From: an uncultured Chloroflexia bacterium
GTDB lineage: Bacteria > Chloroflexota > UBA5177
Direction of reading: 5' to 3'
NCBI GenBank assembly: GCA_963737125.1
Contig: CAVTRL010000001.1
Coordinates: forward strand, 346,699-410,698
Length of the DNA stretch: 64,000 bases
A program made the translations under genes and the position numbers. Shown here piece by piece: positions 1-12,100 of this stretch. Below the pieces are notes generated by a model, which saw nothing but the letters and a program-made list of their open reading frames with translations, was not told the DNA's origin and did no database searches. The stretch's first letter is position 1. Each line of letters begins with the position of its first letter.

Positions 1-1251
1 CAACGATTGGTACGTTGGGTTCCGAAAGTTTACCAGCAGATCTCCATGCGACACGGAGGAGGAAAGTGCCCCTCCGAGGCGTATCCAGGCTGATGGAGAG
101 AGCGTCGTGAGGCGACTCAGTAAGTGACCTGCCACGATGCCAATGAACTGCTTTCCCCGAAGTCTGGCCGGGATCCCCGCACCACCGTTCGGTGCCCAGT
201 GCGCGTAGTAATCAGCTAGCTGACCGACGTTCGCCCCGGATACCTCACGCCTGTACTCAGGTACATACATAGGGCCGGTGGCAGTCAGTATCCGAGAGAC
301 CGCACCGGGTGTCACGTCGACCACATTCGCAACGCTCCGATGAAAGTCCAATCTGTAAAAGAACCGTTCGAGCGCAGCGGTCGTTGGAAAATCCGGTGAC
401 CAGTTGGAGTCTCGAAAAAGCCAGCCAGGTTCGTCGTTGTAATTCTCGACCGGTTCCGGCGGAGGCACCGAGAGATTATCGTCAATGCCGGTGCTCTGAA
501 AGATCTGTTTTGGTTTCCCGTCGTGAATCGTCAATAGACTTGCGCTACCGATAAAGCCACCCGTCGCACGGAGCTCGTTCGAATCCTGGTATGCCAGCAA
601 ATAGGAAGTGGAACCGTGCTCACCCAGGAGTGAGGGCGCAAGCGACAGAGCGCGGCAGAGAATCAGGAGTTGCGGGAGTCGCGTGTCGAGGGAATGAAGA
701 GCGGAGCTCAGGGAAGCCGGCATGCTGCCTCCGGGAATGGCGTGCCGACTGCGTTCGGCATCCCGAAACTGCGTACACGCTCGATCAAACGCTGGGCCAC
801 CTGCTTCCAAGCCACGCACCAGAGTTTGAGAGTTACGCGATCGCGAGGCAGTAGTCCATTCACTCGCAAGCGGCCCGAAGCCATCCAGTAAAGAAAGTGC
901 GCCGTCGGCCGTACTTCGGGCGGCGTGGGCGATGTCTGGGGCCGCGGCCACCTCTACCCCCACCCGAGGGACCCAGCCGAGATGTTTGATTATCGGGGCC
1001 AGGAGGCCGAGCTGGTTGTCGGCGGAGCGAAAGTCTTTTCTCGCGCTGTCGATATCGTTACGCACGGGCGCAAGCGTGAGACGAAGTGACGCGTGGGAGT
1101 GTATCGATTGGAGAGAATTCTGCGCGGAGTGTAATTCGTTTACACCGTTGAGAAGGGATCGACGTGCTGAGACAAGCTCAAAGGCCACAACGGCGAACAC
1201 TACGACACAGAGCAGGGCACCTATGAAGTACAGGAAGCAACCACGATGCAT
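1..1251 (-). CDS. DUF4012 domain-containing membrane-anchored protein, 3' end truncated by the window edge
   Basis: Not in the ORF track because there is no stop in the window. Manual translation gives an open frame from ATG 1251 to base 1: N-terminal TM (CFLYFIGALLCVVVFAVVAF), then YLLAYQDSNELRATGGFIGS and WLFRDSNWSPDFPTTA, which match the motifs I recall for DUF4012. Confidence 0.8.
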   Translation of the reverse strand, partial: MHRGCFLYFIGALLCVVVFAVVAFELVSARRSLLNGVNELHSAQNSLQSIHSHASLRLTLAPVRNDIDSARKDFRSADNQLGLLAPIIKHLGWVPRVGVEVAAAPDIAHAARSTADGALSLLDGFGPLASEWTTASRSRNSQTLVRGLEAGGPAFDRACTQFRDAERSRHAIPGGSMPASLSSALHSLDTRLPQLLILCRALSLAPSLLGEHGSTSYLLAYQDSNELRATGGFIGSASLLTIHDGKPKQIFQSTGIDDNLSVPPPEPVENYNDEPGWLFRDSNWSPDFPTTAALERFFYRLDFHRSVANVVDVTPGAVSRILTATGPMYVPEYRREVSGANVGQLADYYAHWAPNGGAGIPARLRGKQFIGIVAGHLLSRLTTLSPSAWIRLGGALSSSVSHGDLLVNFRNPTYQSL

Positions 1252-1407
1252 GCTCTAGAGTAACCGTGTGCGTATGAAGACCGAAGCCCGGCGAACCAAC
1301 GTGCAGTAGAAGCCGACACCTCTATGTGTCGCCCAGGGCAACACTCTCAGTATCGGCTTGGTGGCGTAACTTTCGGTCTTCCTCGCGCCTCAGCTTTTCA
1401 GAGGTAC

Positions 1408-2226
1408 TCACCACTCGCCTTCGGAAAGGCGGTCAAGCAGCAGCGCGGCTGTGGCAGACGCCTCACCGCGCGGTCCGTGTAGAATTCGGGCTTTGTCAAC
1501 AGCCCTTTCAAGCGTAGCGAGCACGGTCTTGGGCTTACGGCGCAGCGCTGGAGCATGAGCGAGTAGTTGCAGTAGAGCCTCGCCCGCCGACAGGGATTGT
1601 GGATGCCACTGTTTTCCAGGCTCGTACTGTGTCAGAAGGATCGCACCAACCTGCAGCGGTTCATAGCCCAAAAATCCGTCAAAGGCTTCTATCGGTGTTT
1701 TTACCTGGAATATCGACTGCATTTCACGGACTTCCAGCGGTGCGGCGTGCGGATGTATTTTCCCGTGACGGTCGAATACTGCGAATTCGTCGGAATAGTA
1801 AGCAGCCCCCGCTCGAAGCAACTCGGAAACAAGTGTCGTTTTGCCGCTAAAAGTAGTGCCCGGAATGAGGATTGCCTTTTCATTCCACCCCACCACACCC
1901 GCGTGCAGGAAGACTCGATGCTTGGCGCGAATAGCGATAAACAGTTTGAGTTCTGCCTGCAGCACGTGCAGAGCAGTCGGAATATCCGGCCCTTGATAGA
2001 GAACCCGCGTGTTCGCGTATACGCCCACACTGTATTTCCCGATTTGTCGGATTGAGAACAACCGGTCGACGACACTATGCGGATTGTCACTGGACATCCA
2101 GCCATAGGGAAAGTAGTCGGGGAGTTGAGATGCGACTTCTGGGTTATCAGTTCGTATCCCGAGGCGAATGCCGTGTACCTCGCCGACGTGCGTCGTCACC
2201 CATGGAAGACACTGGAGCGATTCCAT
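1408..2226 (-). CDS. HPr kinase-related P-loop protein (putative Ser/Thr peptide kinase)
   Basis: FLHAGVV ... IPGTTFSGKTT (Walker A) ... YYSDEF pattern of HprK C-terminal-like kinases. Start moved to ATG 2226 (MESLQCLPW) so it does not overlap the upstream gene. Confidence 0.8.
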   Translation of the reverse strand: MESLQCLPWVTTHVGEVHGIRLGIRTDNPEVASQLPDYFPYGWMSSDNPHSVVDRLFSIRQIGKYSVGVYANTRVLYQGPDIPTALHVLQAELKLFIAIRAKHRVFLHAGVVGWNEKAILIPGTTFSGKTTLVSELLRAGAAYYSDEFAVFDRHGKIHPHAAPLEVREMQSIFQVKTPIEAFDGFLGYEPLQVGAILLTQYEPGKQWHPQSLSAGEALLQLLAHAPALRRKPKTVLATLERAVDKARILHGPRGEASATAALLLDRLSEGEW

Positions 2227-2272
2227 TCGAGAAGAAGGTCTGCGCAGTCGAGGATAATCGTCTGGATCGCTG

Positions 2273-3838
2273 CTAACCGTGCGGTGACCCTTCACGATTG
2301 ACTCCAGCAAGAACCACTTCGGGCGCCCCATTGAGTAACCGAATGATGTCCGTTGCTCCACCGATTTGGGAAGCGATAGTTCGTGATGCATCGATCACGA
2401 TACCCACAGGTGTAGCATTTACCCCGAAGGAGGCGGCAGTGGCAAACTCTCGATCAAATAAAACCGGTGAGTGCAGGTGCAGGCTTCGTGCTTCTTCTAA
2501 CAATCCGCTGGCGATTACAACGAGCCTGGGAGCGCCAGGTGGCGGCATAGAATCCCACCGATGAAGATCCTCTGTCATGCCACGGCAATAAACACATGTC
2601 GAGCTCCAGAAGAGTACAAGGGTCTCGCCCACCAGGAGATCCGACAGCTGAACCAGATTGCCCTCCAGGTCAGGTAGTTCCAACGCCGGAGCTGGTTGTC
2701 CAAGAAATGAATCCTTTATGATTTCGCGATGCTGCGCTTCAAACTTCAGGCCCGCGAGCTGAACGGCATTCGGCTGGTAGTCGCTTGGTTGCACCATGGT
2801 CAGCACTTCGTTCAAAAGCCAACGTACTTCCTCCGCTCCGCCGCCGACTGGACTTCCGATTGTGCCGTCAGGGCGAATAAGAACGGCTGCGGGAGTACCT
2901 GGGACCTCGAACTCCGTCTCGATACTACGGTCCTCCGCAAAGAGCACTCGTTCCAAACCATGGCTGGAACGCTTCTCTTCGGCGATTTCCAAAGTGCTGC
3001 CACTACTGATCACTACAAGTTCGACATCTCTGCCGTGATCCCGTTGCCAGTGCCCGATTTCTGGCATAAGTGCATTGCAAGGCTCACAGTTGGGTGACGT
3101 GAATAAAAGCAGTAACGGCTTTCCAATACCGTACAGGTCTTGAAGTGAAACGATATGCCCTTCTGTATCCGGGAGCGAGAAGGAGGGAGCTATCGTGCCG
3201 GGTGGGAGGCCGTACCGCGCTGCACTTATCGCTGATCCGGCGACTTCCGGTCTATCAGCACGTAGATCGGACTCAATCATCTTGATGCGCAATAAAATTT
3301 GCTTATTTTGCTGAATAAGCTCACGCAAGAAAGCAAGTGCGACCAACAGAAGACCGGAACCGGCAGCAGCCGCTAGCACGGCAATCCACTCTCCAGCGCT
3401 CAGTAGGGCCAAGCGGTGAAAGGCAGCAGGATCGTGGTTGATGTTTCCCTGTGCCAGTATGAACACCGCCGCCGCGGCAAGCACTCCATTTCGTACCAGG
3501 GTGGCTGGTCCAATCGGCTCCGAGTGTAACTGGCCGAAGCAGTGGCAGTCAGGGGCATCCCCACGCGCCAAACTTACGGTAATGCCGGCGTCAAACGCTA
3601 CGAGTAGAGCTAGCGCACCAAATGCGCCCCACCACGCGAGAGCGCCCGGGAGCAAAAGAGCGACCACCACGATTTCCAGAAGTGGAAGACAAAATGCCAC
3701 AGGCCCGACTAGCGGCCCCGGCAATCTGAAGCTTCTTACCGCCTCACGTGTCCCGGATCGATCCGTCAGCTTACCGTAAGCGGCCAGCGCAAAAACCCCG
3801 GCCAAAACCAGCCGGAGCGCTAGGACAATCAACGACAC
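2273..3838 (-). CDS. MauE/DoxX membrane domain fused to two thioredoxin-like (AhpC/TSA-TlpA) domains
   Basis: N-terminal TM helices with the MauE-type DCHCFG...TLVRN motif; two APxFxLPDxxG redoxin starts with CxxC motifs CEPC and CVYC. Confidence 0.85.
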   Translation of the reverse strand: MSLIVLALRLVLAGVFALAAYGKLTDRSGTREAVRSFRLPGPLVGPVAFCLPLLEIVVVALLLPGALAWWGAFGALALLVAFDAGITVSLARGDAPDCHCFGQLHSEPIGPATLVRNGVLAAAAVFILAQGNINHDPAAFHRLALLSAGEWIAVLAAAAGSGLLLVALAFLRELIQQNKQILLRIKMIESDLRADRPEVAGSAISAARYGLPPGTIAPSFSLPDTEGHIVSLQDLYGIGKPLLLLFTSPNCEPCNALMPEIGHWQRDHGRDVELVVISSGSTLEIAEEKRSSHGLERVLFAEDRSIETEFEVPGTPAAVLIRPDGTIGSPVGGGAEEVRWLLNEVLTMVQPSDYQPNAVQLAGLKFEAQHREIIKDSFLGQPAPALELPDLEGNLVQLSDLLVGETLVLFWSSTCVYCRGMTEDLHRWDSMPPPGAPRLVVIASGLLEEARSLHLHSPVLFDREFATAASFGVNATPVGIVIDASRTIASQIGGATDIIRLLNGAPEVVLAGVNREGSPHG

Positions 3839-4048: not shown

Positions 4049-4684
4049 TCAGCACATAGCGGCGCATGGCGTCCAACCCTGACCTTTAGGGCCGGGGCAG
4101 CACTTAACTCCCGTAGACATACTATTAATTTGACAGCAATGTCCTGAGCCATCGTCTTGCTGACTGCCACTACAACTCGAGCAGACGCCGCATTGGGTCT
4201 TGCCGTTCCATACAACGCAGCACCCGCAGTGTTCTTTGTTTCCCCCACACCCCAGCTGTGAAGGGGAGCAGACGGGAGGTGGTGACGACCAAGCAAACCC
4301 GGTGGTTGGCAAGCTAATAGCGGTAATCATAGGAAGAGCCACTGCTGCGGCAACACCAGTGCGACGCATCAAGTCCCGTCGAGACATTACGTCATCGACG
4401 CGATCGGCAGCATTGTCAAGCAAGCCGTCCTTGTCCAATTGCTTGATTGCGGCATTGACGGTATTTTCGTTCACTGCCGCACCATTTGAGTCACGGATCA
4501 AGTGCACCATATACGCGACAGACGTCCGGCCGTCGCTCAACTGCCAGACCTGTCCCGCAATCTCGTTTAGACAGAAGGCTTTATCCTGTTGACGGTCAAA
4601 AACCAAGATCTCTCTGTCTAACTCACGGACCACCAGGCCGGTGGATCTTGCTCGAGGTCTGAACTCTTTGGAAACTCTTCCCAT
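4049..4684 (-). CDS. PqqD/RRE-domain protein fused to a Tat-type leader and a Cys-rich C-terminal peptide (RiPP-like precursor)
   Basis: ATG 4684 preceded by GGGAG. LVVRELDREILVFD...AFCLNEIAGQVWQLSDGRTSV is a PqqD signature. It is followed by MSRRDLMRRTGVAAAVALPMITAISLPTTGFA and an 80-aa tail with 14 Cys. Confidence 0.85.
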   Translation of the reverse strand: MGRVSKEFRPRARSTGLVVRELDREILVFDRQQDKAFCLNEIAGQVWQLSDGRTSVAYMVHLIRDSNGAAVNENTVNAAIKQLDKDGLLDNAADRVDDVMSRRDLMRRTGVAAAVALPMITAISLPTTGFAWSSPPPVCSPSQLGCGGNKEHCGCCVVWNGKTQCGVCSSCSGSQQDDGSGHCCQINSMSTGVKCCPGPKGQGWTPCAAMC

Positions 4685-4771
4685 CGTTCGGTGCTCCCCC
4701 CTGACGCTCGCATGCACAGCGTTCGACGTCACCAACACGAACACTTGTACACGGTGCCGTCTTCAGAGCTT

Positions 4772-4800
4772 ACTCTACATAGTCTTGCGGTGACTGTCAA
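4772..4800 (-). promoter_or_regulatory. Sigma70-type promoter for the PqqD/MauE/HprK operon
   Basis: Minus strand TTGACA-N17-TAGAGT, about 90 bp upstream of ATG 4684. Confidence 0.6.
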
Positions 4801-5441: not shown

Positions 5442-7070
5442 TTGAAACTTAGCCTCTACCTTTATACTGGCCGTCGCTGGGCGCTATGGTCGGTGGTGCC
5501 GGCAGTCCTCGTCGCTCTGGCTAGTTATTTCTACACAGCACACGAGCCGAAAGTGTACCAGACATCCGCGACGCTGTATGTTCAGGAGCCGGATACCGGC
5601 GGGGGCGTACCGGGCGGCACCGACATTTATACCAGCGAAGCGCTAATCCCCACGTACAGTGAGATGATCAGCCTGCCGGTTATCGCCGTTGACGTGGACA
5701 AGGCTCTAGCCAAGAAGTACCCTGGATATCGCCTGGAAAACCACAACTTGACCGCAGGCGGACTCGGTTCTCTGCCGTCGGCCAGTGCCAGTACTCAACT
5801 CATGACCGTGACGGTAACCGATACTAATCCTGTCCGGGCTGCCGCGGCAGCCAATGCCGCGTCTTCCGCCTTTATCACACAGCAGGAAGCCCTTCAGAAA
5901 TCGCGGTTCCAGGGCGGCGAAAAGGCGATCCAGCAACAACTCAACGTGGCGCAATCAAACATTCAGATCGTTTCGCAGCGACTCACCAATTACCGGGGCT
6001 CGCCCGGAGGCCTGAGCAACTTAAAGGCACAGCTCAGTGCGTATCAAAGCATTTACGCAACCCTGCTCGGATCGGCTCAAGAATTCAGCGTGGGGCGTGA
6101 TACTGCCTTGCACGCGCTCAAGATCGTCTCACCCGCTTCAATTCCCACGACCCCGATCGCACCCAACCCGTCACGCACTGCGCTGATCTATGGGTTCTTC
6201 GCTTTGGTCTTGGCAGCCGGCGGCCTCTTCGCATTTGACTATCTGGACGATACGCCGCGTACCCCGGAGGAGATTGAAGAGATCGTTGGAGCGCAAATCC
6301 TTGGAACGGTGCAGCAGTTTGACCAGAGTAAGTACGGGGCGGGGTTGGTCTCCATCAAAAAGGGCGACTTCCCAGCGGCCGAGGCTTACCGCGTCATACG
6401 CACCAACCTTCAATTTGCCAACGTCGACCATCCGCCACGTTCCTTGGTGGTCACCAGCGCGTTTCCCGGTGAGGGGAAGAGTACGACCGCGAGTAACCTG
6501 GCGACGGTATTCGCGCAGGCCGGCACACATGTTTCGTTGGTGGATGGTGACCTTCGACGACCCAACTTGCATAAGCTTTTCAAGGTGAATCGTGGTGAGG
6601 GCCTCACGAATCTGCTCATTTCAGCAGGCGCTCTGAACGGTCATGGACCCTGGCAATCGGTGTCACCGAATCTCGACCTCATCGTATCTGGCCCACTGCC
6701 ACCTCGACCAGCAGATCTTCTGAGCTCCGCACGGATGAAGGATGTAACGGCTCACCTATCGGAAGGCGCCGGGATGCTGATCATCGACTCGCCTCCCGTG
6801 CTTGCTGTCACCGACGCGGTGATCCTGTCAACCATAGTCGACGGTGTGATACTGGTAGTCGATACGAGCCGAAGTAAGAGAAGTGACCTTCGACGTGCCC
6901 GAGAAGCAATTGAAGGCGTCGGAGGCAAAATCGTGGGGATTGTCGTCAACCGGCTGAAGGAGCGCGGCGGCGGATATTACTATCACTATTATCAACGCCA
7001 TTACGGCTACGCGGAGTCGTACGACTTCAACCCGGCTACCGAAAAGTCGCTGACCGAAACGAAAGTGTAG
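5442..7070 (+). CDS. Polysaccharide co-polymerase / BY tyrosine autokinase (Wzc/CpsCD-type), copy 1
   Basis: Wzz-like N-terminus with two TMs; AEAYRVIRTNL; Walker A GEGKSTT; VDGDLRRP; LIIDSPP; Tyr-rich tail GGGYYYHYYQRHYGY. TTG start. Confidence 0.9.
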   Translation: MKLSLYLYTGRRWALWSVVPAVLVALASYFYTAHEPKVYQTSATLYVQEPDTGGGVPGGTDIYTSEALIPTYSEMISLPVIAVDVDKALAKKYPGYRLENHNLTAGGLGSLPSASASTQLMTVTVTDTNPVRAAAAANAASSAFITQQEALQKSRFQGGEKAIQQQLNVAQSNIQIVSQRLTNYRGSPGGLSNLKAQLSAYQSIYATLLGSAQEFSVGRDTALHALKIVSPASIPTTPIAPNPSRTALIYGFFALVLAAGGLFAFDYLDDTPRTPEEIEEIVGAQILGTVQQFDQSKYGAGLVSIKKGDFPAAEAYRVIRTNLQFANVDHPPRSLVVTSAFPGEGKSTTASNLATVFAQAGTHVSLVDGDLRRPNLHKLFKVNRGEGLTNLLISAGALNGHGPWQSVSPNLDLIVSGPLPPRPADLLSSARMKDVTAHLSEGAGMLIIDSPPVLAVTDAVILSTIVDGVILVVDTSRSKRSDLRRAREAIEGVGGKIVGIVVNRLKERGGGYYYHYYQRHYGYAESYDFNPATEKSLTETKV

Positions 7071-7231
7071 CGGCTCGGCAACTGTCCGGCAAGTCTAGCC
7101 GGGGCAAGGCGTCAAGATCTTTTCGGCGCCGTTTATATTCCTCGGGCTTGCAACCGGTTTCATGGGCGACTTTGGACAATGTTGCTATACGGGAGCAAAG
7201 AAACCCGACGGACGCCAGCATTTCACTCAGG

Positions 7232-7651
7232 TTACGTGGAGAGACGCCGCCGAATGCCGGCCATGAGCAGGTAGCCGCATAGTACTCCGAGGGTGTTCGT
7301 GAGCACATCGGTGGTGGATGCAGTTCTGCCGAGGGGAAAAACGTATTGCGCGGTTTCTATGGCACTTGACAGGGCCGTTCCCGCTGGAATCATTCTTCGT
7401 GGATCGTCCAGTGCCGGCACCGCCAGTGGCACGAAGAAGCCGAAGGGCACATACAGTGCCACATTCCCTCCAAGCTGGATCATGAACCATCGAGCAAGCT
7501 GATCGGCCGGAAGGGTAGTCTGCAAATCGCGGAATGGGACCAGGTTCAGTACGTGGCTCGTATGCCCAAAGGGGAACAAGCCCACGCCGAGAATCAGGAA
7601 CAAGGCGGCTGCCGCACGGGTCCGGTTCACCCGTATTACGTTACGCTCCAC
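7232..7651 (-). CDS. VanZ family membrane protein
   Basis: NLVPF...GNVALYVPFG...SSAIETAQY...GRTASTTDVLTNTLG is the typical VanZ pattern. Confidence 0.75.
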   Translation of the reverse strand: MERNVIRVNRTRAAAALFLILGVGLFPFGHTSHVLNLVPFRDLQTTLPADQLARWFMIQLGGNVALYVPFGFFVPLAVPALDDPRRMIPAGTALSSAIETAQYVFPLGRTASTTDVLTNTLGVLCGYLLMAGIRRRLST

Positions 7652-7907
7652 ACGCTGACGACACGCCCGTACGGGACATAAGGCTCGCTCGGCGGAGACG
7701 GCTCCATCGGTTGAGGATGAAGCTCAGGTGCGTCGCGCATGAATCAGCATAGTGCACGCATTGAAATTTGGTGCGTCGAGCTATTTCCTGTACGGTGCTT
7801 CTTCCCGGGTGTAGCCTGGTCGGAAGCCTCACACCCGGAATGAGTCAAAGAGGTCTTTGACTATGAGTTCAGGCCCGCTGAGCCTTCAGGAAACGAGGTA
7901 GAAACCT

Positions 7908-8132
7908 GTGGAGTCAGACCCGAGCAGTAAGGCGGCCGAGTATGAGAGTGCCAGGCTTCGGCGAGTAAGCTCCGAGACGCACGGGCGCATATGCCGTCAA
8001 TGCATGCAACCCATGCTTTCCAGGCGGCGCCTGCCATGGTATCTTCGGCCTCTGCGCCGGCTCGGATTCCCTTTGAAGTCCTACGAATGTCTCTTTTGCG
8101 GCGCTGTGACGATTCACCGAAAGGAGCGATAG
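7908..8132 (+). CDS. Small basic zinc-ribbon-like protein (74 aa)
   Basis: GAGG SD before GTG; two CxxC pairs (CRQC, CLFC) near the ends. Confidence 0.5.
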   Translation: MESDPSSKAAEYESARLRRVSSETHGRICRQCMQPMLSRRRLPWYLRPLRRLGFPLKSYECLFCGAVTIHRKER

Positions 8133-8350
8133 AACATCTTTACGGTTTGCGCGGTCGGCGGACTGAGACGGTGTGAGAGTCGCGACAACAATAACGTACT
8201 TGAAGTGTAGATAATTTGATGTAGAACCTTCTATATTTACGTGACATGAACGTCGAACACGAAAGACGTTCACCGTGCCCGGAAATTGTCCCAGTGGACT
8301 GTGGTCGGGTCGGGGAAGGTGCATACATGCAGGTGCGTCCAAGTGAGTAA

Positions 8351-10048
8351 TTGAACATCGGTTTGTACCTGTATCAAATCCGACGCTGGGTTTCCTTCGC
8401 GATATTTCCCGCCGTTGTCGTAATGGGATTGGTGTATCTCTACGAACACCATGTGCCCAGGACCTATCAAACAAGCGCTTTACTCTACGTGCAGGATCCC
8501 GGCAACTCGACTCAACCGGGTGGAACCGATGTGCAGACGAGTCAGGCGCTCATCCCGACCTACAGCCAGATATTCGTGTCACCGGCCATCACCTCCGCCG
8601 TGGATGCAACTCTGGCGAAAACGTACCGGGGATACCGGATTGAGGCGCATGATCTGAAGGTTCAGGGAGTCACGACAACGCCATCCGCGCCCCTAAACAC
8701 CCAGCTTATGTCGGTTAGCGTCACCGACACGATCCCGCAACGCGCTGCGGTTGCCGCGAATACAGCGGCCAGAGCGTTTATTCGCAAGATTACCGCGATC
8801 GAAAAACAGCGGTTCAAGGGTGGGGCACGGGCGGTCGAGCAACAGCTCGCGGTCGAGAACAATAACATTCAACTCGTGTCGCGCGAGATCACGAATTACA
8901 AGGGCAGTGGCGCCGGTCTGAATAATCTCAAAGCTGAGTTGAACGCAAATCAAACCATTTATGCGACGCTCCTCACGTCATCGCAGGACTTCAACCTGGC
9001 GAGGAGCACCGCGGCCAGCGCCGTAAAGCTCATTTCTCCGGCCCCAGTTCCCACTGCAGTAGTTGGTCCGCATCCTATCCGCATCTCGGCGCTCGCGGGA
9101 TTCATAGCCCTCATACTCGGTCTGGGTCTACTGTTCCTCTACGATTACTTCGACGATACGCCCCGCACGCCGGAGCAAATCGAAGCGCTCCTGGGGGCAC
9201 CGATTTTGGGAACGGTGCAGCAGTTCGACCGAAAGCGATATGAGACCGAGTTGATCACCGCTCGACGCGCGCGATCTCCGGTATCCGAAGCGTATCGGGT
9301 GATCCGCACGAACATCCGGTTCACCGATATCGACCACCCACCGCGCACGCTCGTGATCACCAGTGCATCACCGGCGGAAGGTAAATCCACCACGGCAGCG
9401 AATCTCGCGAACGTGTTCGCCGAGGACGACAAGCGCGTCACCTTGATTGATGCAGACTTACGACGTCCCAGCTTGCATCGGATCTTCCAGGCGGAGCGCG
9501 GTGAAGGGCTGACCAACATGCTGACGAGTACCGAGGCGCTGAACGGCCATCACGGAACAAAGCAAGGGGACCGGTCCAACCTCGAACTCATTGCTTCCGG
9601 GCCCCTACCACCCCGCCCAGCCACCCTTCTGGGCTCCGATCGTATGCGCGAACTAACGCAGCACTTTGCCAATGACGCGCAAATCCTGTTGATCGACTCC
9701 CCCCCGGTGCTAGCAGTGGCCGACGCCGCGATACTGTCCACCGTCGCGGACGGAGTCCTTATGGTCGTCGATCCGGCGAAAAGTAAGAAGCGAGACCTGC
9801 GCCGCGCCCGAGAAGCGATTGAAGCCGTGGGAGGCCGTATCATCGGCATTGTCATCAATCGATTGAACAAGCGGGGCAGCAGCTACTACTACTACTATTA
9901 CCACCACAATTACGGATATCAGTATAACTACCAGTACCTCGCGCAAAAGGACAAAGTCACAGCGCTTGAAGCCGACGAAAACAGTGGCGAGATGAGCGTC
10001 CCGGCCCTATCTGGCGATTCCAGGATCGATCCAAAGGATTCGTTGTGA
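8351..10048 (+). CDS. Polysaccharide co-polymerase / BY tyrosine autokinase (Wzc/CpsCD-type), copy 2
   Basis: Collinear with 5442-7070; SEAYRVIRTNI, AEGKSTT, IDADLRRP, LLIDSPP; tail SSYYYYYYHHNYGYQYNYQY. TTG start. Confidence 0.9.
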   Translation: MNIGLYLYQIRRWVSFAIFPAVVVMGLVYLYEHHVPRTYQTSALLYVQDPGNSTQPGGTDVQTSQALIPTYSQIFVSPAITSAVDATLAKTYRGYRIEAHDLKVQGVTTTPSAPLNTQLMSVSVTDTIPQRAAVAANTAARAFIRKITAIEKQRFKGGARAVEQQLAVENNNIQLVSREITNYKGSGAGLNNLKAELNANQTIYATLLTSSQDFNLARSTAASAVKLISPAPVPTAVVGPHPIRISALAGFIALILGLGLLFLYDYFDDTPRTPEQIEALLGAPILGTVQQFDRKRYETELITARRARSPVSEAYRVIRTNIRFTDIDHPPRTLVITSASPAEGKSTTAANLANVFAEDDKRVTLIDADLRRPSLHRIFQAERGEGLTNMLTSTEALNGHHGTKQGDRSNLELIASGPLPPRPATLLGSDRMRELTQHFANDAQILLIDSPPVLAVADAAILSTVADGVLMVVDPAKSKKRDLRRAREAIEAVGGRIIGIVINRLNKRGSSYYYYYYHHNYGYQYNYQYLAQKDKVTALEADENSGEMSVPALSGDSRIDPKDSL

Positions 10049-10121
10049 CAACGATTTGTCATCGACATGTTGTGCTGGCATCCACACCGACTAGCTCGCG
10101 AAGGAGCCTGGAAAAACTGCG

Positions 10122-10853
10122 ATGATATCGCCGTTAGCCGTTGTGGAATCGGACGAAATAGGCACCGGAGTTACAGTCGGTGAGTTCGCTATCGTTCGTC
10201 GAGGCGCGAGAATTGACGACAATGTCGTGGTACATCCGCATTCAATCATCGAGAGCGGGGTGGTTGTGGGCGAGGGTGCGGAAATTTTCCCTGGTGCGTA
10301 CATTGGTAAGGAACCGAAGACCACCGGAGCCCTGGCCCGACCTCTAACCTTTCAAAAACGGGTTTCGATCGGGCGCTGGGTCCATGTCGGACCGCATGCC
10401 GTGATCTACTACGACGTCGAGATTGGTGATCTATCGCTGATCGGTGATGGAGCATCTATCAGAGAACAGAGCAGAATTGGTTCGTCTTGCGTCATAGGTC
10501 GCAACTGTACCATCAACTACGCCGTTGTAATTGGGAATCGTGTGAAGGTAATGGACCTCACGTGGCTTGCAGGCAATATGACAATTGGAAACGACGTTTT
10601 CATTTCGGGTGGCGTTCTGACCGCGAACGATAACTCATTTGACCGTTTTGGCTACGACGGTACGTCCGTAGTCGGTCCCCAAATCAAAGATGGGGCAATG
10701 ATCGGCGTGGGTGCCACACTCCTACCCGCCGTGGTGATCCATGAAAAGGCCATAGTAGGAGCTGGCTCAGTGGTGACCAGGGATGTCGCCGCTCACACGC
10801 TTGTCAATGGTATTCCGGCTCGATTTGTGCGAATGCTGGTGACGGACTCTTGA
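10122..10853 (+). CDS. Left-handed beta-helix N-acyltransferase (nucleotide-sugar, QdtC/FdtC-like context)
   Basis: Continuous hexapeptide repeats; IVGAGSVVTRDV...NGIPAR C-terminus; adjacent to a DegT-family gene. Confidence 0.85.
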   Translation: MISPLAVVESDEIGTGVTVGEFAIVRRGARIDDNVVVHPHSIIESGVVVGEGAEIFPGAYIGKEPKTTGALARPLTFQKRVSIGRWVHVGPHAVIYYDVEIGDLSLIGDGASIREQSRIGSSCVIGRNCTINYAVVIGNRVKVMDLTWLAGNMTIGNDVFISGGVLTANDNSFDRFGYDGTSVVGPQIKDGAMIGVGATLLPAVVIHEKAIVGAGSVVTRDVAAHTLVNGIPARFVRMLVTDS

Positions 10854-10927
10854 CTGGTCAACGAGATAGGGAAAGACATCATACGCCTCGGTCAGCACGG
10901 GGAGATTAGCCGATTCCAACCGGCAGG

Positions 10928-12100
10928 GTGAGCGAACGCATGTCGACGACTCCAACCGTTCCCTTCCTCGACCTGCAAGCTCCGTATAACGAGTTGCGCT
11001 CGCAGATCGATGCGGCCATGAGTCGGGTGCTGCGCAGCGGTTGGTACTTACTTGCAAGCGAGCTTTCCGTCTTCGAAGACGCGTATGCCCGCTACACCGG
11101 GGCAAAGTACTGCGTCGGGGTCGCCAATGGCCTGGATGCGCTGACGCTTTCCCTACTCGCGATGGATATTGGCGCCGGCGACGAGGTCATCGTTCCCAGC
11201 AATACGTACATCGCAACGTGGCTGGCAGTAACCCGCGCCGGCGCAACTCCGGTACCGGTCGAACCGGACGAAGCCACCTACAACCTGGATCCACGAGCGA
11301 TAGAAGCGGCGATCACCGAGCGCACAGCCGCAATTCTGCCTGTACACCTGTACGGCCAGCCGGCGGATATCGACCCGATTATCAACCTCGCACGACGACA
11401 CGGCCTCAAAGTGCTGGACGATGCGGCGCAAGCACACGGTGCGCGCTATAAGGACCTGCCTATTGGCGCTCTGACCGATGCAACCGCGTGGAGTTTCTAT
11501 CCCGGTAAGAACCTGGGCGCAGTAGGAGATGCCGGCGCCGTTACCACGAACGACGATGCGCTGGCCGACCGCCTGCGCGTACTGCGCAACTATGGGTCAC
11601 GCGTCAAATACGTCAACGAGGTCCTGGGATACAATAGTCGGCTCGACGAGGTGCAGGCGGCCGTTCTGACAGTGAAGCTCGACTTCCTGGCTGAGTGGAA
11701 TGGCAGACGGCGCGCTATCGCCGATCGTTACCTGGAGGGCCTGCGCGACACCCCGCTTGGTCTTCCCCAGATACCGACGTGGGTGCAACCCGCCTGGCAC
11801 GTCTTCGTCATTCGCTCCCCCGGCCGCGATGAACTGCAACGGTATCTGCGCGACTGCGGAGTTCAAACGCTCATTCATTATCCGGTTCCTCCGCACCTGC
11901 AGGAAGCATATGCGCCACTCGGATTGCGCCGGGGAAGCTTTCCGATCAGTGAATTGATGCATCGAGAGGTACTCAGCTTGCCCATCGGACCGCACATGAC
12001 GTCCGAACAGGCCGATACCGTGATCGACTCGGTATGCGGCTGGTTCGCCGGCGCACCGGCACCGGCCGGCAGTGGCAACTGCCGCTCGGCGACCTCATGA
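10928..12100 (+). CDS. DegT/DnrJ/EryC1/StrS PLP aminotransferase (FdtB/QdtB-like)
   Basis: [38 protein letters not shown] (PLP Lys), [22 protein letters not shown]. Confidence 0.9.

Follow-up and report, generated by a model that had tools for sequence, protein, structure and literature searches.

The window analyzed here, a stretch of 64,000 nucleotides (64 kb) from contig CAVTRL010000001.1 of an uncultured Chloroflexia bacterium, contains a gene that probably encodes a self-contained source of an exported disulfide-rich peptide. The open reading frame (ORF) lies on the minus strand (4049..4684) and was identified from the ORF listing and by direct reading. It encodes 211 amino acids followed by a stop codon (4049..4051). 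The product, referred to here as the precursor, consists of a RiPP (ribosomally made peptide with post-translational modifications) recognition element (RRE), a signal of the twin-arginine translocation (Tat) type and a cysteine-rich core. The RRE in cis and the signal together would form the leader of the peptide. The whole arrangement of RRE, signal and cargo is conserved in a very large family and is therefore not a product of chance. Members of this family are linked to genes encoding HprK-related kinases, nucleotidyltransferases of the NTP_transf_5 type and fusions of MauE with thioredoxin domains (MauE-Trx).

The N-terminal domain (residues 10-92; 4409..4657, minus strand) was assigned to the PqqD/RRE fold by Pfam, AlphaFold2 (AF2) and Foldseek. 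The PF05402 (PqqD) model matches residues 26-89 with 24.6 bits, above the gathering score of 23.4. The AF2 model built from a deep alignment contains three strands (17-21, 26-30 and 35-39) and three helices (41-49, 56-67 and 73-85), with a predicted local distance difference test score (pLDDT) of 93-97. The best Foldseek match in the PDB is TbiB1 (5v1u), a lasso-peptide B1 protein that was solved with its leader (template modeling score normalized to the target 0.72-0.74; root-mean-square deviation 2.6 A over 84 columns). It is followed by the RREs of cyanobactin heterocyclases, ThcOx, PqqD, TfuB1, CteB and SkfB. Judged from sequence and model together, the domain is a real RRE fold, and binding of a leader along its third strand (beta3) is only indirectly hinted at. 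Two cysteine positions of the domain are highly conserved (window 4535-4573 spans residues 38 and 50). Cys38, located in beta3 (AFCLN), is present in 139/148 members and is invariant in smaller alignments. Position 50 is a cysteine in 134/148 members and a serine in the window protein. To our knowledge, conserved cysteines are not usual in RREs.

The RRE is followed by the Tat-type signal, and residues 100-131 read M-SRRDLMRR-TGVAAAVALPMITAISLP-TTGFA. The twin-arginine motif S101-R-R-D-L-M-R107 (4364..4384, minus strand) matches the TatP regular expression RR.[FGAVML][LITMVF]. The hydrophobic region (h-region) extends from G110 to P126 (GVAAAVALPMITAISLP; 4307..4357, minus strand) and contains two near-invariant prolines, P118 and P126. 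The c-region, T127-A131 (4292..4306, minus strand), ends in a signal-peptidase-type G-F-A site (positions -3 to -1), with P126 as a helix breaker at -6. With A131 taken as -1, the proline at -6 and the small residue at -3 show the spacing that is classical for signal-peptidase sites. The h-region is rich in Ala, Val, Leu, Pro, Ile and Ser across the family and is only weakly hydrophobic; its maximum 19-residue Kyte-Doolittle mean is 1.55, compared with 1.65-2.44 for the transmembrane (TM) helices of the neighboring MauE. The motif occupies residues 101-107 and not the protein N-terminus, and the uncharged stretch of the family starts at a median of residue 107. The earlier note had placed the motif correctly, some 100 residues into the protein, and the domain before it is a true RRE fold. 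Two hydroxyl-bearing positions flank the signal. S/T133 (window 4286-4288) is present in 142/148 members and S/T101 (window 4382-4384) in about 90%. Given their position, S101 and S133 could be sites of phosphorylation by the co-encoded kinase or of glycosylation.

The family was defined with a profile built from 16 relatives of the same layout that were obtained in a first search. This profile was scanned against 1.84 billion representatives and gave 10,885 matches at E<=1e-3, 6,097 at E<=1e-10 and 2,272 clusters at E<=1e-30. All 150 matches listed are 157-340 amino acids long and carry the motif at about residues 90-110. Each of them contains the pattern [ST]-R-R-[ED]-[VLM]-[ILVM]-[RK]-[KR]-x-G, an h-region of about 17 residues and AP-x-A-x-A. 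Motif statistics were calculated over 268 members and column conservation over an alignment of 148 sequences. Loss of the arginine pair among homologs had been named beforehand in the earlier note as the result that would speak against a Tat signal; the pair was found in 147/148 aligned representatives and, upstream of the uncharged stretch, in 261/268 sampled members. The TatP expression is matched in 234/268 members, 207 of which have S or T at -1. In the alignment, R102 is conserved in 148/148, R103 in 147/148, G110 in 136/148, P118 and P126 in 147/148 each, and A131 in 143/148 sequences, and position 129 (-3) is occupied by A, V, S, L, G or I. The information content per column is 2.88 bits in the n-region of the signal, 2.75 in the h- and c-regions, 2.53 in the RRE and 0.94 in the cargo. 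Members named by NCBI are called "PqqD family protein" or "hypothetical protein" and come from metagenome-assembled genomes (MAGs) of Acidobacteriota. In NCBIfam, none of the 148 members attains the cutoff of any model.

The core extends from W132 to C211 (about 78 amino acids; 4052..4291, minus strand) and contains 14 cysteines, including the doublets 155/156, 183/184 and 195/196; S133 is its near-invariant S/T. The 14-cysteine core with three CC doublets and an even cysteine count, the G-F-A site before it, and the positions given for Met100 (4387) and for the core (4291..4052 plus the stop codon) had all been read correctly in the earlier note. The cargo of the family is hypervariable. It has a median length of about 48 amino acids and an even number of cysteines in 94% of the 182 members with a detectable AxA site. 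Many relatives share the six-cysteine framework C-x6-C-x5-CC-x3-4-C-x7-C, and others contain 8-28 cysteines. One member, P0221, scores 18.5 bits with PF07740 (spider inhibitor cystine knot), below the threshold of 21. The window core contains 14 cysteines, and its AF2 model is of low confidence. Tandem arrays of paralogous family members are common.

Several further features of the cargo were recorded. The motif HCGCC (window 4210-4230) occurs in the window core as well as in P0002 and P0003, the two homologs closest to it, whereas a second His-adjacent cysteine doublet, GHCC (window 4126-4140), is confined among these three to the window core. These motifs hint at metal binding instead of, or besides, disulfides. 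Hint/intein-like cargo is present in some members (P0012, P0201, P0260, P0261, P0014, P0267 and P0165) and begins at a cysteine 2-6 residues past the AxA site. Four of these paralogs (P0012, P0201, P0260 and P0261) are encoded in tandem in one genome (L002:6703-11124). P0165 contains a 6-Cys knottin, then GG|C and then the Hint domain, which is a Hedgehog-like layout and suggests that the exported part may process itself.

The precursor gene is the first of three genes in the same orientation, followed by genes encoding a MauE-Trx fusion and a kinase, the latter two genes downstream of the precursor. The MauE-Trx gene (2273..3838, minus strand) encodes a MauE domain (Pfam, 3e-27), a fifth TM segment and two thioredoxin-fold domains with the motifs CEPC and CVYC (AhpC-TSA/Redoxin). 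The MauE part contains C98-H-C100 followed by F-G, which is the CXC-FG active-site signature, and the protein has five hydrophobic segments. MauE has been reported to replace DsbB in E. coli and to use a CXC active site (bioRxiv 10.64898/2026.03.05.709764). The fusion is presumed from its sequence to be an extracytoplasmic disulfide catalyst. If the published topology of MauE applies here, both thioredoxin domains (CEPC and CVYC) should lie outside the membrane on account of the fifth hydrophobic segment (152-170).

The HprK-related kinase-like gene (1408..2226, minus strand) encodes a Walker A motif, GTTFSGKT. The best NCBIfam match of its product is TIGR04352 (E 4.9e-14), with 52.1 bits, below the cutoff of 200. 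The start at 2226 is the probable one because the alignment with orthologs begins at Met56 (MESLQ) of the longer ORF (2391..1408), which shares 119 nt with the end of the MauE-Trx gene. Since it lacks any hydrophobic segment, the kinase is presumably cytoplasmic. It is 37% identical (E 9e-63) to the kinase adjoining the family member P0166 in a Pyrinomonadaceae MAG, where the gene order is kinase, precursor, NTP_transf_5.

The precursor of the window, used as the sole query, retrieved no relative from GTDB genomes, and the loci of the family were reached via the kinase instead. Two kinases used as probe gave at least 586 relatives in GTDB species genomes, of which the best 80 loci were analyzed; family members in these loci were found by an own hidden Markov model over six-frame ORFs. 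The best 80 loci are mostly from Blastocatellia/Pyrinomonadaceae, with some from Gemmatimonadota, Methylomirabilis, Thermoanaerobaculaceae and Bryobacterales. A family member is encoded on the kinase strand in 46/80 loci, usually directly 3' of the kinase, and an NTP_transf_5 homolog is present in 68/80. No protease or ABC exporter is conserved across the 80 loci, which fits a general signal peptidase and a general export route. In nine loci a MauE-Trx fusion is also present, and the genes run precursor, nucleotidyltransferase, MauE-Trx, kinase and, in some, a second precursor. The cargo in these nine loci has a median of 68 amino acids and 10 cysteines, compared with 36 amino acids and 6-8 cysteines (Mann-Whitney p 3e-4). 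The window (about 78 amino acids and 14 cysteines; precursor, MauE-Trx, kinase) belongs to this MauE-Trx subtype, without the nucleotidyltransferase. In other loci the kinase and NTP_transf_5 genes are adjacent and no precursor is found within 6 kb (L014, L015, L020, L021, L024, L026 and about 20 others). The enzymes of such loci may act on substrates encoded at other sites, such as the tandem arrays without enzyme genes in L001, L002 and L004.

The following sequence of events is proposed. The RRE would fold, stay in the cytoplasm and most likely present the precursor to cytoplasmic tailoring enzymes, namely the HprK-like kinase in the window and, in most relatives, the NTP_transf_5 nucleotidyltransferase as well. 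The latter enzymes are presumably cytoplasmic because they use nucleotides. The signal, with its SRRDLMR motif and its h-region of weak hydrophobicity kinked by prolines, would insert with the N-terminus in and the C-terminus out, probably via the Tat translocase. Signal peptidase I would then cut after G-F-A131, or after S/T133 (96% conserved), and free the core of about 78 amino acids outside the membrane, where the adjacent MauE(CXC)-Trx-Trx fusion would form about seven disulfides in it. The earlier note had supposed that the RRE may need to be removed before export. Such removal is not required, since whatever precedes a Tat or Sec signal stays on the inner side of the membrane.

The best start of the precursor ORF, as read from the sequence, is the ATG at 4684, and the N-terminus of the homolog P0002 (59% identical) agrees with it; MGRV is common to P0002 and the gene-caller product P0001. 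A Shine-Dalgarno (SD)-like sequence, GGGGGGAG (4694..4701, minus strand; direct reading), lies 9 nt 5' of this ATG. A promoter-like element, TTGACA-17-TAGAGT (4772..4800, minus strand), lies upstream of the ORF and matches the consensus at 10/12 positions; this is a match to the consensus only and does not imply function. An internal in-frame ATG encodes Met100 (4385..4387, minus strand) and is followed by SRRDLMRRTGVAAAVALPMITAISLPTTGFA. The earlier note had raised the possibility of a second isoform starting here, that is, a separate Tat prepeptide translated independently of the RRE. The ATG does lie exactly one residue before S-R-R, and a weak promoter-like match is present at 4353..4326, though downstream of ATG 4387. 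A methionine occupies this position in only 33/234 members (14% of those matching the TatP expression), and all sampled members keep the fusion as one ORF. The bases before ATG 4387 (gatgacgta) contain no SD-like sequence by direct reading, as the earlier note had itself pointed out in finding no strong one. The second isoform is unlikely because Met100 is not conserved and the SD is absent, the fused ORF is the conserved unit, and a Met100-initiated prepeptide is scarcely credible; the internal start was rejected. An artefact of sequencing or fusion was also rejected because the fused layout is the conserved state of the family. The reading of the precursor in the earlier note is, as a whole, partly supported.

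Several observations weigh against the proposed pathway. Several family members are found in loci without kinase, nucleotidyltransferase or MauE, and in about 28 loci with kinase and nucleotidyltransferase, no family member lies within 6 kb. The NCBIfam scores of both kinases are far below the cutoffs (52-57 bits vs 200), and no NTP_transf_5 gene or remnant is present in the 64-kb window. The TIGR01409 (TAT_signal) model matches residues 101-118 of the window protein with 16.2 bits, just below its cutoff of 16.7, and matches 14/148 members at E<=0.1. A basic "Sec-avoidance" residue is present in the c-region of only 17/148 members, and a cargo that is oxidised outside the cell has no obvious need for Tat. 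A few members (P0224, P0226 and P0251) end 2-9 residues past the AxA site and thus consist of RRE and signal with almost no cargo; these near-cargoless members are unexplained by the precursor model.

Other explanations were also weighed. The same architecture and fate could be combined with export by Sec or the signal recognition particle (SRP), with the signal acting as an internal cleavable signal or type II anchor and the arginines supplying positive-inside charge. A disulfide-rich cargo that is oxidised outside can travel unfolded, the Sec-avoidance residue is mostly absent, bufferins use Sec, and Tat and Sec signals overlap functionally (PMC7317946). The arginine pair, however, is near-invariant and not interchangeable with K/R combinations (R102 148/148, R103 147/148). 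The surrounding positions follow the S-R-R-x-F-L-K consensus (-1 is S/T, +2/+3 are hydrophobic and +4/+5 are K/R), and the h-region is of low hydrophobicity and rich in Ala, Val, Ser and Pro. Proteins carrying bulky cytoplasmic modifications have moreover been argued to be poor Sec substrates (PMC11626156; PMC7317946). Tat is favored over Sec by the near-invariant arginines with the complete S-R-R-x-h-h-K motif around them, by the low hydrophobicity and by the last argument, so that export would depend on TatABC and the arginine pair, and the Sec/SRP route is possible but the less likely one. A more distant alternative is an uncleaved bitopic membrane protein of the anti-sigma or ToxR-like type, in which a cytoplasmic winged-helix/RRE domain would be joined to an external cysteine-rich sensor. 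The layout of an N-terminal cytoplasmic domain, one hydrophobic segment and an external domain fits such a protein, some members are almost cargoless, and extracytoplasmic function (ECF) sigma factors and kinases are encoded near some members. It is nevertheless very unlikely. The residues before the core match a canonical signal-peptidase site (A131 at -1 in 143/148, a small residue at -3, P126 as helix breaker at -6), and the hydrophobic segment contains two near-invariant prolines and lies below TM level in hydrophobicity. The cargo is hypervariable, knottin-like and often encoded in tandem paralog arrays, and the gene is linked to tailoring genes of the RiPP type.

A further possibility, raised in the earlier note, adds a layer to the proposed pathway and does not replace it. 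The cis-RRE might bind its own signal (approximately VALP118-MITAIS-LP126) as an extra beta-strand on beta3 and so hide the Tat signal until release in the cytoplasm, for example by phosphorylation of S101/S133 by the HprK-like kinase. This would be an in-cis analog of the Tat proofreading chaperones. Conservation is higher in the signal segment than in the folded RRE, P118 and P126 each being kept in 147/148 sequences, which is unusual for a generic signal peptide. Within the RRE, conservation peaks in beta3 (AFCLN). The V-A-L-P-x-[IV] stretch of the signal is similar to the lasso leader motif YxxPxL, and the closest solved fold, TbiB1, is bound to a leader. AF2 with 120 sequences placed a strand at residues 120-124 (pLDDT 62-68), but AF2 with 16 sequences gave no such strand, and residues 94-134 had a pLDDT below 50. 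Covariation was measured as mutual information with average product correction (APC-MI; effective number of sequences about 290). It was restricted to residues 1-134, since the full-length signal is dominated by gap patterns of the cargo. Several of the top 25 pairs join residue 34 (beta3 start) and residues 74 and 78 (alpha3), which form the canonical RRE groove, to residues 108-123. The enrichment of groove residues among covarying pairs is, however, not significant (p 0.10), and subfamily structure can inflate mutual information. The high conservation of the signal could likewise reflect recognition by TatC, signal peptidase or a tailoring enzyme. Self-masking of the signal is possible but not likely, and more doubtful still is the full version, in which the cis-RRE would hold VALP...AP until the kinase, with the nucleotidyltransferase in some relatives, modifies S101 or S133. 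In that version, the family would form a new class of exported RiPP-like peptides whose Tat signal is chaperoned by its own protein and controlled by phosphorylation.

The proposed precursor and its cluster share parts with several known systems. The lasso tailoring set, composed of a B1 RRE, the HPr-kinase homolog PadeK and the pseudomycoidin nucleotidyltransferase, contains the same three protein types as the loci of the family, whereas the window itself has the RRE and kinase only. The likeness extends to the fold, as TbiB1, a lasso B1 protein, is the solved structure closest to the RRE. In lasso systems, HPr-kinase homologs phosphorylate the linear precursor, and a nucleotidyltransferase glycosylates the phosphate (PMC8498205). 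In contrast to the lasso systems, the RRE is here fused to the substrate, the precursor has a signal peptide, and the core ends in Cys, whereas PadeK targets a C-terminal Ser. Neither a lasso cyclase (Asn-synthetase-like) nor a B2 leader protease adjoins the precursor, which has only MauE-Trx and the kinase beside it, and neither is conserved in the 80 loci. The HPr-rel-A system, described in silico only, likewise combines a kinase (TIGR04352, kinase A) with a PqqD-family protein (TIGR04353, PqqD chaperone). Weak TIGR04353 matches were found in 38/148 family members and none for the window protein. The scores are far below the cutoffs, the PqqD protein described here carries a Tat-like signal and Cys-rich cargo, and the window has no NTP_transf_5. 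No paper on HPr-rel-A was found in the literature search.

Bufferins are encoded with BufA (DUF2282), the MNIO enzyme BufB, the RRE-containing BufC and DoxX. They are RiPPs that use a general signal peptide, with a cysteine-containing precursor that is cut by signal peptidase, and their operon also combines an RRE protein with a membrane protein of the DoxX/MauE superfamily (PMC11626156). They differ in having a trans-acting RRE, an MNIO in place of a kinase, and a Sec signal at the true N-terminus. MauA of methylamine dehydrogenase is likewise a small, multi-disulfide exported protein that needs MauE and the thioredoxin-fold protein MauD. The signal of MauA is long and of the twin-arginine type. 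Here, by contrast, no other mau genes and no tryptophan tryptophylquinone (TTQ) context are present, MauE and two thioredoxin domains are fused, and the substrate carries an RRE. Functional Tat signals that are not N-terminal have been described in the actinobacterial Rieske protein Sco2149 and others (PMC3471235, PMC5449189). In Rieske proteins, Sec-inserted TM helices precede an uncleaved Tat anchor, whereas here a folded soluble domain precedes a cleavable signal. The Tat proofreading chaperones TorD, DmsD and NapD are cytoplasmic modules that bind a Tat signal before export. The likeness to these is conceptual and concerns self-masking only; the chaperones act in trans, have unrelated folds and serve cofactor-enzyme clients.

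The cluster contains a leader and core, an RRE and a co-located tailoring gene, the features by which a RiPP cluster is recognized, and the order kinase, precursor, nucleotidyltransferase recurs in GTDB loci. The best reading of the precursor and its cluster, as far as sequence can tell, is a RiPP-like system in which the core would be modified. It is placed outside the lasso and HPr-rel-A systems because it lacks the tested features of both. The parts are known: RREs, Tat-type signals, the kinase/nucleotidyltransferase pair, RiPPs with signal peptides and disulfide formation assisted by MauE/MauD. Their combination in thousands of genes, with a cis-RRE fused to its own substrate upstream of a cleavable Tat signal, was not found in the literature, in a 2025 RRE survey (PMC12710340) or in NCBIfam. 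The survey notes only that 21% of PF05402 proteins are over-long without a second domain (PMC12710340).

The surroundings of the cluster were also inspected. Downstream of the kinase (window 1-1408), no ORF longer than 110 amino acids, no tRNA and no Rfam match were found, and the GC content (0.58) is like that of the surroundings. No Rfam family and no tRNA were found in the window as a whole. A polysaccharide locus (window 5442-12100, plus strand) is divergent from the precursor cluster and contains two Wzz/GNVR/BY-kinase genes, a hexapeptide acyltransferase and a DegT aminotransferase. The best matches of the DegT protein are 60-69% identical to it and come from Chloroflexota, Proteobacteria and other groups, which was uninformative for taxonomic placement. 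The kinase-precursor-nucleotidyltransferase clusters of Acidobacteriota often adjoin genes encoding a TPR+CBM_4_9 protein (38/80) and a Wzy_C O-antigen-ligase-like protein (24/80); L010:4620-5930 and L019:1907-3475 are examples. Judging from these gene neighborhoods, the system may be linked to genes of surface glycan or protein O-glycosylation.

The family looks like an undescribed route to exported disulfide-rich peptides. RiPP biosynthesis is assumed to rely on an RRE carried by an enzyme or by a separate chaperone, with leader removal and product export left to dedicated proteases and ABC pumps. In the present family, the RRE belongs to the substrate itself, the housekeeping signal peptidase would remove the leader, and a general pathway, probably Tat, would export the product. 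The family provides a candidate substrate for the uncharacterised pairing of an HprK-related kinase with NTP_transf_5 and for the MauE-thioredoxin fusions. For Tat research, it would offer a natural and widespread cleavable twin-arginine signal behind a folded cytoplasmic domain, with which the N-terminal tolerance of the translocase and its proofreading could be addressed. The hosts are mainly soil Acidobacteriota, together with Gemmatimonadota, Methylomirabilis and the organism of the window. If the proposed pathway is correct, thousands of proteins annotated as "PqqD family proteins" would be the precursors from which a large and so far hidden pool of secreted knottin-like peptides is made.

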